The position numbers and the translations under genes were made by a program. A DNA stretch of 64,000 bases, taken from positions 54,525-118,524 of the forward strand of contig JBGANK010000003.1 of the NCBI GenBank assembly GCA_044222395.1, given 5' to 3'. A model generated the notes under the pieces. The model had not been told where the DNA came from. It made no database searches and saw nothing but the letters and a program-made list of their open reading frames with translations. Shown one piece after another: positions 43,260 through 45,932 of this stretch. Origin of the DNA: Hyphomicrobiaceae bacterium (GTDB lineage Bacteria; Pseudomonadota; Alphaproteobacteria; Rhizobiales; Hyphomicrobiaceae). The stretch's first letter is position 1. Every line of letters starts with the position of its first letter.

Positions 43260-43363
43260 GCTGCTCTGCTCCTTACTGACGTGGGCACGGGCGGGCGAGC
43301 ATCACGAATTCCATCTGTGCGAGGGCAGGCCCGAGTTGCGTTCAACCATGCCGGCATGAAAAT

Positions 43364-43393
43364 GGCCCGCCCTGAATAGGATCAGGGCGGGCC
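43364..43393. terminator. bidirectional intrinsic terminator (PepSY gene / Met-rich gene 1)
   Basis: GGCCCGCCCTGA-atagga-TCAGGGCGGGCC 12-bp stem. A-rich 5' flank and T-rich 3' flank. Confidence 0.75.
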
Positions 43394-43439
43394 AACTTCT
43401 TATTGTTTGTCATTCTGCCAAATCGTTGGAGATGAGATG

Positions 43440-43760
43440 TTACTTCTTCTCATCTTTCTTCTTGGCGTCGCCCGACATACCGGACATGCCGCCCATGGCC
43501 TTGAGACGCTGCTCGGCCTCGGCGGGAGAGCGTCCTTCCATGCCGACCATGTTGTCAGGCTGCATTCCCGACATGCCGCTCATGCCCTTCTGACCAGACA
43601 TTCCCGACATGCCACCCATGCCGCTCATGCCCTTCTGGTCGCCCGACATTCCGGACATGCCGCCCATACCGCTCATGCCTTTTTGCTCTTGAGCCGATGC
43701 CGCAGTGGCGATGGCGCAGGAAACAAGTGCAGCACCAGCAAGCTTCAGGATCTTCCACAT
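43440..43760 (-). CDS. secreted Met/Gly/Ser-rich repeat protein, copy 1 (106 aa)
   Basis: Signal peptide MWKILKLAGAALVSCAIATAASA, then GMSGMGGMSGMSG(D)QK repeats and a Lys/Glu tail. GGGAGAA RBS. Confidence 0.75.
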   Translation of the reverse strand: MWKILKLAGAALVSCAIATAASAQEQKGMSGMGGMSGMSGDQKGMSGMGGMSGMSGQKGMSGMSGMQPDNMVGMEGRSPAEAEQRLKAMGGMSGMSGDAKKKDEKK

Positions 43761-43990
43761 AGAATCTATTCTCCCAGTCCTAGTCATGTTGGAACAAACG
43801 GCTCTTAGGCGCCCGCTCGCGAGCACCGGATGGCTGCCGTTCGGAATTCGGGCCCCGACTCACAGCCCTCGCCAGCGGCACTCAGCATTTACTCCATCTG
43901 AGGTCAACTGCCGGGGCGCATTAGAGTTGCACGCCGTGGCAAAAAATTGCGCAATATTTGGACGTTGCAGCATTCTGTTGTGCATTTTTT
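43761..43990 (-). promoter_or_regulatory. conserved structured 5' leader/promoter of Met-rich gene 1
   Basis: Alignable with 44856-45085. Hairpins at 43876-43913, 43832-43867 and 43808-43827 (see findings). Confidence 0.5.
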
Positions 43991-44280
43991 CGGGCAAGTT
44001 CGGGCGGAGACTTATCACGAGCCAAGGTGGCGGGTCGGCTGGGACAGGGTGTGTGATTTCGCCACATCGGAGGTTGCGACGGAGATCAAACCAGGGCGAG
44101 GGCTCAAGCAGGCCCGATCTCAGCAGCACCGCCTCAGCTGCCACGTTCCGCCCATGCCTCCAATTGGTAATCTGATCATGGCCAATACCTGAACCCGAAT
44201 CGGTTCCAACCCTGCGCAATGGGCGAGCGAACAGCGACGGTTCTGAATGCGCTGCCGTGAGCCGCTCAGGCATGAAAAAA

Positions 44281-44308
44281 GCCCGCCCCGATATCGATCG
44301 GGGCGGGC
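44281..44308 (-). terminator. intrinsic terminator of Met-rich gene 2
   Basis: GCCCGCCCCGAT-atcg-ATCGGGGCGGGC, followed on the minus strand by TTTTTTCATG. Confidence 0.75.
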
Positions 44309-44354
44309 CAAGTGTCCAGTATCCGGCATTACGCCGAAATCGTTTGGGGGGAGA

Positions 44355-44855
44355 TTACTTCTTCTCGTCCTTCTTCTCGTCCTTCTTGGCGTCGCCCGAC
44401 ATGCCCGACATGCCACCCATGCCGCTCATGCCCTTCTGGCCGGACATGCCCGACATGCCACCCATGCCACTCATGCCCTTCTGATCGCCAGACATGCCAG
44501 ACATGCCACCCATGCCGCTCATGCCCTTCTGATCGCCGGACATGCCAGACATGCCACCCATGCCGCTCATGCCCTTCTGATCGCCGGACATGCCAGACAT
44601 GCCACCCATGCCGCTCATGCCCTTCTGGCCGGACATGCCAGACATGCCGCCCATTCCACTCATACCCTTCTGATCGCCAGACATACCGCTCATGCCCTTC
44701 TGATCACCGGACATGCCAGACATGCCCTTCTGATCGCCGGACATGCCAGACATGCCGCCCATGCCGCTCATGCCCTTCTGCTCTTCAGCCGTCGCCGCAG
44801 TGGCGAGGGCGCAAGAGATAAGGGCAGCACCAGCAAGCTTGAGGATCTTCGACAT
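44355..44855 (-). CDS. secreted Met/Gly/Ser-rich repeat protein, copy 2 (166 aa)
   Basis: Signal peptide MSKILKLAGAALISCALATAATA. Nine GMSGM(GGMSGM)SG(D)QK units and a KKDEKKDEKK tail. Confidence 0.75.
   Translation of the reverse strand: MSKILKLAGAALISCALATAATAEEQKGMSGMGGMSGMSGDQKGMSGMSGDQKGMSGMSGDQKGMSGMGGMSGMSGQKGMSGMGGMSGMSGDQKGMSGMGGMSGMSGDQKGMSGMGGMSGMSGDQKGMSGMGGMSGMSGQKGMSGMGGMSGMSGDAKKDEKKDEKK
44397..44777 (-). repeat. in-frame tandem repeat (48-nt / 30-nt units) inside Met-rich gene 2
   Basis: Two adjacent 48-nt units, 44511-44558 and 44559-44606, are identical. Neighbouring units differ by a few bases. Confidence 0.85.
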
Positions 44856-45085
44856 GTATCTTTTCTCCCAGTCACAGTCGCGTTGCTACAAACGGCTTGA
44901 AGGCGCTCGTTCGCGAGCGCCGGCTGGTTGCCGTTTCGAAATCAGGCCCCAACCCTCGGCCCCTTTACAGCGGCGCTCAGTATTCACTCCGCCTGAGGAC
45001 CACCGCCGGGCGCGCATTAGAAAGGCAGGTCATGGCGAAAAGTTGCGCAATAGTTGGAAGTCACAGCAATCTCTTATGAAATATT
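44856..45085 (-). promoter_or_regulatory. conserved structured 5' leader/promoter of Met-rich gene 2
   Basis: Alignable with 43761-43990. Hairpins at 44971-45008, 44926-44954 and 44902-44921. Confidence 0.5.
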
Positions 45086-45347
45086 GCGGCCTAGTTCTGA
45101 CCAAGATCAGCACCCAGTCGATGATTCCGCTTTTGGCAGCAAGCCGCCTGATTTGGCCAAGGTAGATATCCCGTGGGCTGCGAATCGATAAAGGGATCTG
45201 GTTAACGGCAGCACTTGTCGGGCCTTTCCAGCATCTGAGAAGCGCCGGAACCCTGCTTGGCAGCAGAGTTAACCAACTTCCTGAAGGGTTTGTTGATCGT
45301 TCAATGTCAAGGTCGTTCAAACCTTATTTTCAAGCAGAGCCAAACCT

Positions 45348-45932
45348 ATGAACCTCATGGCCGACGCGCGACTGTTTCACGTGGTGCAGCACGCGCATGT
45401 CCACAAATTCGTAGAGAAGCCATATGCCGGGGGCCATGCCAGCGCGCCAGTGCTGCTCGTGCTGTCAGGCCTTGCCATCGCCGGACTTGTCGCGGCGTCC
45501 ATCTTCGTCCCCGCTGCCGTAGCTCCCATGATCGTGGCAACCGCTATCCTCATGGTCGGCGCGGTGGGACTAGCCCTGTTCAGCCTCTATGCCACCGGCG
45601 AGATTATCGAAGCGCGCTTCGACAAAGGCCGGAATTGCGCTCAACTGCTTTATCGCGGACCAACCGCTCATACCGTGTGGGATATTCCGCTCAACCGCAT
45701 CTCTGGCGCACGCATGGCCATGCGCTATGATGAAAATGGCGCGAAAGTCGCAACGCCGGAGCTGGAACTGACGAATGGGCGCACGATCGATCTACCGGCC
45801 TCCACCACGTGGCAAGATATCGAGGCCATTCGCGCGCTGATTGCCGAAGATACTTCGAATAGCGATGCCGCCTGGGCGCGCAAGGCGAGCGTCCGCCAGG
45901 GCGCGCGCACGCGAGGCAAGAACACGCGCTGA
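45348..45932 (+). CDS. hypothetical membrane protein
   Basis: 194 aa with two adjacent TM segments followed by a soluble domain. Moderate GC3. Confidence 0.55.
   Translation: MNLMADARLFHVVQHAHVHKFVEKPYAGGHASAPVLLVLSGLAIAGLVAASIFVPAAVAPMIVATAILMVGAVGLALFSLYATGEIIEARFDKGRNCAQLLYRGPTAHTVWDIPLNRISGARMAMRYDENGAKVATPELELTNGRTIDLPASTTWQDIEAIRALIAEDTSNSDAAWARKASVRQGARTRGKNTR

Follow-up and report, generated by a model that had tools for sequence, protein, structure and literature searches.

Among the genes described in the literature, the functionally closest to those considered here encode MrpX and BcrX, methionine-rich (Met-rich) periplasmic scavenger peptides under ECF16 sigma factors (SigF/NrsF and BcrS/AbcS), which are controlled at the promoter motif (T/C)GTAAC-N17-CGAA and adjoin msrPQ and a sigma/anti-sigma pair (PMC4436054, PMC8315932). 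The stretch analysed here (the window, 64,000 nt of contig JBGANK010000003.1 from a 3.65-Mb metagenome-assembled genome of a Hyphomicrobiaceae bacterium) carries two tandem genes on the minus strand, copy 1 and copy 2, both predicted to encode secreted Met/Gly/Ser-repeat proteins, and upstream of each lies a leader that a preliminary description had proposed as a structured cis-regulatory RNA. The window proteins share with MrpX and BcrX a small size, secretion and an extreme methionine content. In contrast, MrpX is rich in charged residues, neither msrPQ nor an ECF pair adjoins the window genes, and the ECF16 motif was not found in the 330 nt preceding each copy or in those preceding four orthologues; the window's sole ECF16-like site (59442, minus strand) falls inside a glycosyltransferase open reading frame (ORF). 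By analogy with MrpX and BcrX, Met-rich secreted proteins are thought to mop up oxidants or to bind periplasmic metals. Here, we found that the sense-strand RNA structure of the two leaders has been preserved beyond chance since they were duplicated, that this signal comes mainly from one two-tier hairpin, termed P3, and that a second small block, termed P2', recurs in orthologous leaders. Our tentative reading is that the leader is a lineage-restricted structured 5' untranslated region (UTR), in which P3 would serve as an attenuator, either a leaky intrinsic terminator or a pause.

Both leaders derive from a single 5' region of ~190-250 nt, duplicated along with the whole Met-rich cassette. 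Alignment of both units indicated that the duplicated unit spans from about -250 through the leader, the coding sequence and the 3' UTR to the terminator, and that the upstream homology ends abruptly near -250, beyond which the identity of 42% is at the random level. Each unit ends in a strong intrinsic terminator and, since that of copy 2 separates both units, copy 1 needs its own promoter within the duplicated region. The leaders align with 77% identity across ~220 nt; by segment, the identity is 77% in the leader from -160 to -1, 68% upstream from -250 to -201 and 64% in the 3' UTR, and the third codon positions of the signal peptides are 74% identical (20/27). The divergence of the leaders since duplication appears to be about the neutral rate, and because their identity equals that of the third codon positions, conservation alone is uninformative. 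The alignment of the two non-coding regions, which the preliminary description had offered as evidence, therefore loses its force, as it results from tandem duplication of the complete gene cassette. The true start of copy 1 is the ATG at 43760, its N-terminus MWKILKLAGAAL aligning with orthologues that start with MSKILK.

Structure conservation was assessed against a null model in which the observed substitutions were re-placed at random and each simulated pair was refolded with RNAalifold. Over the region from P1 (hairpin 1 of the preliminary description) to P3 (126 columns), the sense strand had a structure conservation index (SCI) of 0.84, compared with 0.63-0.68 under the null (p 0.0025-0.02), whereas the antisense strand had 0.63 against about 0.65-0.66 (p about 0.6). 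The duplicated promoter region, used as a negative control, gave p values of about 0.1-0.4, and the genes' real terminator, used as a positive control, gave p <= 0.008. Substitutions were found in 7 of 60 paired columns but in 22 of 64 unpaired ones (Fisher p 0.003), and all seven in paired columns were compatible with pairing. These results indicated that, since the duplication, the sense-strand leader RNA has kept its structure better than expected by chance, and the placement of the substitutions suggests that this preservation is under selection.

The signal comes mainly from P3, which consists of hairpin 3 of the preliminary description and a previously unremarked outer stem, AACGGC/GCCGUU. 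Tested as a segment, P3 had an SCI of 0.98 (p <= 0.01 for the sense and about 0.5 for the antisense strand); it folds with -23.6 kcal/mol in copy 1 (z -2.0) and -24.1 kcal/mol in copy 2 (z -3.0), all three substitutions in its stem yield G.U pairs, and its loops differ at about 35%. Hairpin 3 is as it had been described, with two G.U pairs in copy 1, and the argument drawn from these wobbles for selection on the sense strand holds in the SCI test and extends to the larger hairpin. For P1, the exchange of A-U for G-C between CGGCA/UGCCG in copy 1 and CGGCG/CGCCG in copy 2, around an invariant CUCAG/CUGAG, was confirmed, with two compensatory substitutions in 20 stem positions versus six in 18 unpaired positions. 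Its segment test gave p 0.10-0.25 for sense and 0.005-0.007 for antisense, and P1 is thus preserved without strand specificity. In the middle region (P2'/hairpin 2), structure conservation between the two copies was not significant. Compensatory base changes, the second argument of the preliminary description, amount to one double change, where 1.4 were expected on average and at least one arose in 79% of the simulated alignments. The sequences at all six hairpin coordinate ranges match those quoted exactly; the observation was thus accurate, and of the three arguments built on it, those from alignment and compensatory changes carry no weight while the one from wobbles stands.

An account that we consider rather unlikely, though not negligible, is that the leaders have no function and are neutrally diverging duplicates, whose hairpins are usual for 64% GC and whose structure signal reflects chance or a mutation pattern. 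It would agree with the equality of leader and third-position identity, with the ordinary whole-leader folding energies (z -0.8 and +0.1), with the frequency of compensatory pairs in random simulations just given, with orthologous leaders that cannot be aligned and do not rise above background with a covariance model, and with the 294 genomic matches that make a loose P2' descriptor uninformative. However, it does not explain why the SCI is significant on the sense strand only, with both controls behaving correctly, why P3 reaches z -2 to -3 in both copies, or why P2' is conserved across genomes; moreover, the divergence of stems and loops alternates at a scale of 5-8 nt, unlike the effect of gene conversion or of regional differences in mutation rate.

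Features of the Met-rich cassettes in the window, and related loci elsewhere. Positions without a locus label are those of the window.
Feature	Copy	Position	Strand	Description	Basis
Met-rich gene	1	43440..43760	minus	106 aa; signal peptide, then MSGMGG repeats	ORF list
Met-rich gene	2	44355..44855	minus	166 aa	ORF list and orthologue alignment
Duplicated upstream region	1	43761..44010	minus	promoter region and leader	segment identities
Duplicated upstream region	2	44856..45105	minus		segment identities
Shine-Dalgarno sequence	1	43769..43775	minus	GGGAGAA, 8 nt 5' of ATG	unpaired in consensus fold
Shine-Dalgarno sequence	2	44863..44869	minus	GGGAGAA	unpaired in consensus fold
P3	1	43796..43842	minus	outer GAACGGC/GCCGUUU around hairpin 3 (43808-43827), then GUU	
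P3	2	44890..44936	minus	outer AAACGGC/GCCGUUU around hairpin 3 (44902-44921), then GUA	
P2' hairpin block	1	43850..43868	minus	GGGCU-GUGAGUCGG-GGCCC	two-copy consensus fold
P2' hairpin block	2	44944..44962	minus	GGGCC-GAGGGUUGG-GGCCU	two-copy consensus fold
Hairpin 2	1	43832..43867	minus	GGCUGU...GCAGCC, inner UCGGGG/UUCCGA	alternative fold
Hairpin 2	2	44926..44954	minus	GGUUG...CAACC; minimum-free-energy fold uses GGUUGG/CCAGCC and GCC/GGC	
P1 (hairpin 1)	1	43876..43913	minus	CGGCA-GUUGAC-CUCAG-loop-CUGAG-UGCCG	RNAalifold consensus
P1 (hairpin 1)	2	44971..45008	minus	CGGCG...CGCCG	
Upstream box	1	43936..43946	minus	TTTTTTGCCAC; candidate promoter/operator element	
Upstream box	2	45032..45042	minus	CTTTTCGCCAT; candidate promoter/operator element	
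Intrinsic terminator	1	43363..43394	minus	13-bp stem, then UUUUCAU	terminator scan
Intrinsic terminator	2	44280..44309	minus		terminator scan
MKRSLATLL-group loci		L078 (about 1237, -), L081 (1349, -), L083 (1347, -), L084, L009/L087, L023, L103 (345, +)			
MauG-like/Met-rich layout		L090 1-1750 (G067:C8); also upstream in L080, L082, L085, L086, L007/L008			
Dispersed palindromic repeat, examples		C29:8270, C29:70283, C56:31301, C70:102691, C81:65177, C48:5259			

The hairpins of the leader compete with each other for sequence. Hairpin 2 can be drawn in each copy, as the preliminary description had it, but its 5' arms occupy different alignment columns, GGCUG of copy 1 being aligned to GGCCG of copy 2 and GGUUG of copy 2 to AGUCG of copy 1; the reported change from C-G to U-A is thus no compensatory change at homologous positions and defines no covarying helix. 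When the segment of copy 1 is folded in isolation, hairpin 2 is the minimum-free-energy structure (-18.9 kcal/mol). In both copies, hairpin 2 and the combination of P2' with the outer P3 stem exclude each other, hairpin 2 drawing on some of the AACGGC arm and on either the loop or the 5' strand of P2'. Two folds result, fold A with P2' and the full P3, and fold B with hairpin 2 and the outer stem of P3 open. Constrained folding placed them ~2 kcal/mol apart in both copies, a gap that is common by chance (-48.9 vs -46.9 kcal/mol in copy 1 and -53.9 vs -55.6 kcal/mol in copy 2).

P2', absent from the preliminary description, is a block of 19-20 nt, RGGYC-loop-GGCYY, and the only one conserved in the orthologous leaders of four other genomes. 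Orthologous genes (N-terminus MSKILK.AGAA) were found only in three other genomes of the genus (L004, L005 and L006) and in one ENA metagenome contig (L070), which confines the candidate element to one genus of uncultured Hyphomicrobiaceae plus that contig. Searching 201 family genomes with the leader DNA returned the two own copies only, and the further matches of a profile search of 401 family genomes were all distant or different Met-rich genes. Protein searches of all GTDB species genomes and the JGI metagenomes yielded mainly betaproteobacterial relatives at 50-55% identity and few orthologues, and a set of 5.8 billion proteins added one useful relative (P0001/L070). The orthologous upstream regions had no BLAST similarity to the window leaders. 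In an unbiased L-INS-i alignment of five lineages, P2' was the best conserved 19-nt window, with a mean pairwise identity of 0.67 versus 0.33 overall and 0.46 in the region of the Shine-Dalgarno sequence (SD) and start codon, and its distance to the ATG is 74-89 nt across the six leaders. Its stem pairs in 30 of 30 cells across these leaders, a value equalled by 129 of 500 column shuffles, and all six asymmetries between its left and right arms are G.U in the sense RNA and A.C on the opposite strand.

A covariance model built from the two copies with their structure (R1) found the orthologues at the correct place and strand with 12.1, 8.8 and 7.7 bits, and a sequence-only model (R2) scored them at 4.9, 5.7 and 2.3 bits with E-values similar to those of R1. 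The alignment fitted to the model was 97.7% paired; as it is biased by construction, its pair counts were discarded. Hairpins resembling P1 and P3 can be drawn in each orthologue, yet they are no more stable than shuffled sequences except in L070, and a U tract lies 3' of none of them. P1 and P3 are not recognisably conserved in the orthologous leaders.

In five of the six leaders, the G-rich loop of P2', GGYUG, has its complement in a CARCC further downstream. This would allow a pseudoknot and raises the question of whether the block is the aptamer of a ligand riboswitch, for example for methionine, S-adenosylmethionine (SAM) or a metal. We regard this as unlikely, and distinctly so. The complementarity, with U-A, C-G and U.G at one position, a geometry compatible with an H-type pseudoknot and the conservation of P2' itself would all suit such an aptamer, and sensing of methionine or SAM would be sensible for a Met-rich product. 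However, copy 1 breaks the candidate pseudoknot, forming two of its five pairs, only one position covaries, the conserved stretch measures ~19 nt, the linker between the pseudoknot arms is unconserved, and the distribution is limited to one genus and one contig. Rfam 15 had no match in either leader at E <= 10, and none at E <= 1 in the orthologous leaders or in those of the other Met-rich group described below; SAM-II (RF00521), SAM-V (RF01826) and SAM-SAH (RF01727) matched neither the window nor the orthologous leaders. A conserved core of the riboswitch type was not found either, and a literature search linking Met-rich proteins and riboswitches returned nothing relevant.

The same block could also act as DNA, with the palindromes of hairpin 3 and P2' serving as operators for a dimeric regulator or P2' forming part of a promoter. 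P2' is better conserved than the SD, as is often the case for promoters and operators, it keeps a fixed distance from the ATG, L004, L005 and L070 match GG-N10-GC inside it, and P1 is conserved equally on both strands. Nevertheless, we give this explanation hardly any credence, as the P3 signal is specific to the sense strand, the asymmetries of the P2' arms are tolerated as G.U in the sense RNA alone, both window copies and L006 lack GG-N10-GC, and no -10 element is found at the correct spacing. A sigma-54 reading of P2' was rejected for the window, GG-N10-GC (-24/-12) missing in both copies. In L070, a near-consensus sigma-54 -24/-12 promoter, TGGCATGCCGATTGC, does occur at 2208-2222, 292 nt before the Met-rich gene and outside the P2' block; it would give a 5' UTR of ~270 nt with the P1-like and P2' hairpins, and the window copies have at a similar place a GAATGCT/GATTGCT remnant only, without GG.

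Further upstream, a TTTYGCCAY-like box (upstream box in the table) recurs in the orthologues 21-23 nt before the base of P1 and is possibly a promoter or operator element. Directly upstream of it lies the palindrome ATTGCGCAAT (43946-43955 and 45042-45051). The palindromes near the same place in orthologues differ (TTGCTCCAAAGCAA in L004 and TGACGTCA in L005), so no operator sequence is shared. Within the copy 2 leader, an ORF of 43 codons (44886-45017, minus strand), whose AUG lies within CUAAUGCGC, crosses P1-P3, and the same AUG in copy 1 meets a stop after five codons; this ORF is probably not a leader peptide. Attenuation through the Met codons of a leader peptide was rejected, as no upstream ORF (uORF) is common to both copies. 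Sequestration of the SD was likewise rejected: the SD is free in the consensus fold, with a UUCC/GGGA pairing in copy 1 only, and control of translation initiation by sequestration is therefore not indicated. Hairpin 3 as a dispersed or REP-type repeat was rejected too, no other copies being present in the genome. Outside the window, a different palindrome, (C)CC-UCUCCCC-loop-GGGGAGA-GGG, is dispersed over both strands of the same genome in about 25 copies; U.GGGGUGAGGGG often comes after it, and it resembles a REP-type intergenic element.

Collectively, the leader holds one well-supported hairpin (P3), one conserved small block (P2') and an attenuator logic that is plausible but unproven. As modelled from the folds, a terminator/antiterminator/anti-antiterminator layout would be the most likely mechanism. 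The leader would be transcribed as a long structured 5' UTR, and P3 would work as a leaky terminator or pause before the Met-rich gene; hairpin 2 would compete with P3 by consuming part of the 5' arm of its outer stem, P2' would exclude hairpin 2, and a trans-acting factor at P2' could shift the balance between the folds. P3 offers the stable G+C-rich hairpin of an intrinsic terminator or attenuator, and directly 3' of its outer stem, 35 nt before the ATG, follows a U-rich tail (UUUGUU in copy 1 and UUUGUA in copy 2), part of which is itself paired in the outer stem. The attenuator role that had been suggested for hairpin 3 is reasonable in so far as this hairpin is the tip of the two-tier P3 ending in a short U tract.

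Several points nevertheless weigh against the attenuator. The tail falls short of the U run of a terminator (at least five U in the eight nt right after the stem), and P3, with no more than three consecutive U and an internal loop of 8x5 nt beside four G-C bp, did not pass a terminator scan of 43300-45400, which listed the terminators of the two genes and nothing else. The orthologous leaders L004, L005, L006 and L070 lack P3 together with its U tract, so that an attenuator, if real, would be specific to this genome. Alternative folds of nearly equal energy are frequent in GC-rich RNA, the whole-leader folding energies are ordinary, and the statistics of structure conservation compare two sequences, copy 1 and copy 2. 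In the orthologues, where the preliminary description had looked to covariation for a decision, the covariation of P2' across the six leaders is not significant and does not by itself prove a hairpin, and the R1 scores are no better than those of background matches in 41 kb. Finally, no sigma-70, sigma-54, EcfG or ECF16 promoter consensus is present in the window leaders.

Almost as likely as the attenuator is a constitutive structural 5' UTR, in which P1, P2' and P3 would stabilise or process the mRNA with no switching or termination, by shielding it from 5'-end-dependent RNases, providing an RNase III site or insulating the SD from folding. Strand-specific structure conservation fits this role equally, the U tract of P3 is weak, the SD is free, and hairpin-rich leaders also precede other Met-rich gene groups of the family. 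If TCTAAT (43920-43925/45016-45021) were the -10 element, P1 would start a few nt from the 5' end, and L004 carries TATACT at the matching place; this assignment is a guess, however, with no -35 element, and the P1-like regions of the orthologues are no more stable than shuffled sequence, L070 excepted. A constitutive role also leaves unexplained why the P2' loop is conserved above the level of the SD. A separate trans-acting small RNA (sRNA) of ~125-160 nt, comprising P1, P2' and P3 as its terminator and with the Met-rich gene expressed by read-through, appears improbable. In the order of its elements, with one hairpin at the 5' end, a middle part and a GC-rich hairpin plus U-rich tail at the 3' end, the leader does resemble bacterial sRNAs, and P3 is the best preserved element, but no Rfam sRNA matched, the U tract is weak, P3 is missing in the orthologues, and neither other copies nor obvious targets were found.

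Other Met-rich genes of the family have leaders of their own. A different group (N-terminus MKRSLATLL...VSAI), found in at least seven family genomes of several genera, has a conserved double hairpin about 95-130 nt before the ATG, UCUCGYGC-loop-GCRCGAGA and, after 1-6 nt, CCGGGGC-loop-GCCCCGG. In this motif, 89 of 89 pairs are canonical and the first hairpin (H1) covaries at position 5 (G-C/A-U/G.U) and position 6 (U.G/C-G/U-A); in L103, an unrelated hairpin replaces the second (H2) at the same place. Its wobbles favour the sense RNA, it has no Rfam match, and it is not present in the window's own genome. The leader of the MKRSLATLL group is a better-supported candidate cis-regulatory RNA than the window leader. 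A third group (MSKILRFAGAA/MSQKVRMAGAV; L022, G207:C167, and L101, G202:C23:68125) shares a leader block of its own, AUGGUUAACGNCGAAU, which is situated ~100 nt 5' of the ATG and has no relation to the window leader. In many relatives, a di-haem cytochrome c peroxidase/MauG-like gene precedes the Met-rich gene, as does a gene for a small secreted protein ending in ...DDQGxWFTPF.HPGM.GPYDIR.LH, a layout that suggests a periplasmic operon for defence against peroxide or other oxidants; the two window genes have no such neighbours. The N-terminal 40 residues of the window proteins (signal peptide and first MSGM repeats) have counterparts with 48-65% identity in many Rhodocyclaceae (L034-L063), including Dechloromonas, Azonexus, Sulfuritalea and Accumulibacter. 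These are activated-sludge bacteria, some of them known (per)chlorate reducers, and by analogy the counterparts would fit an MrpX-like oxidant-scavenger role of the Met-rich proteins.

A more far-reaching possibility, to which we assign a low probability, is a new class of switch, in which P2' with its pseudoknot to CARCC would act as a ligand sensor or as a protein-binding site, toggle between hairpin 2 and the P3 terminator and thereby set the output of the Met-rich periplasmic protein; together with the double-hairpin leader of the MKRSLATLL group, which covaries strongly and is unrelated to that of the window, control at the RNA level would then be general for Met-rich genes in the Hyphomicrobiaceae. 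If the leader regulates, it would be a first handle on how bacteria control very Met-rich secreted proteins, the synthesis of which draws heavily on methionine. With the candidate element limited to one uncultured genus of the family, the wider impact is modest and the value of the analysis is at present mostly methodological: the alignment and the 'compensatory changes' of two tandem paralogues are no evidence for a structured RNA, whereas a test of the placement of substitutions, with controls for strand and region, singled out the constrained hairpin P3.

Compared with known RNA elements, the window leader has something in common with three types. With SAM-II, SAM-V and SAM-SAH, it shares a small hairpin whose loop is able to pair downstream, an alphaproteobacterial host and a methionine theme; in contrast to these riboswitches, it has no conserved core beyond the hairpin, its SD is not involved, and the pseudoknot is broken in copy 1. 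The 5' UTR of E. coli ompA is the textbook case of a stabilising 5' UTR stem-loop. With it, the leader would have in common that a gene for an abundant secreted protein carries a long 5' UTR, as predicted here, with hairpins upstream of a free SD and selection for pairing instead of sequence; P2', however, has a loop of conserved sequence, which a pure stability element does not require. Set against the protein-dependent transcription attenuators of pyr (PyrR), trp (TRAP) and bgl/sac, the leader has a short U tract (UUUGU) and a large internal loop in the stem, is a candidate by fold only, has no conserved uORF and is unconserved in orthologues. In the arrangement of its hairpins, it is nonetheless like these attenuators: a U-rich tail adjoins a stable hairpin, a competitor lying upstream overlaps the 5' arm of that hairpin, a third small hairpin excludes the competitor, and the folds are near-equal in energy.

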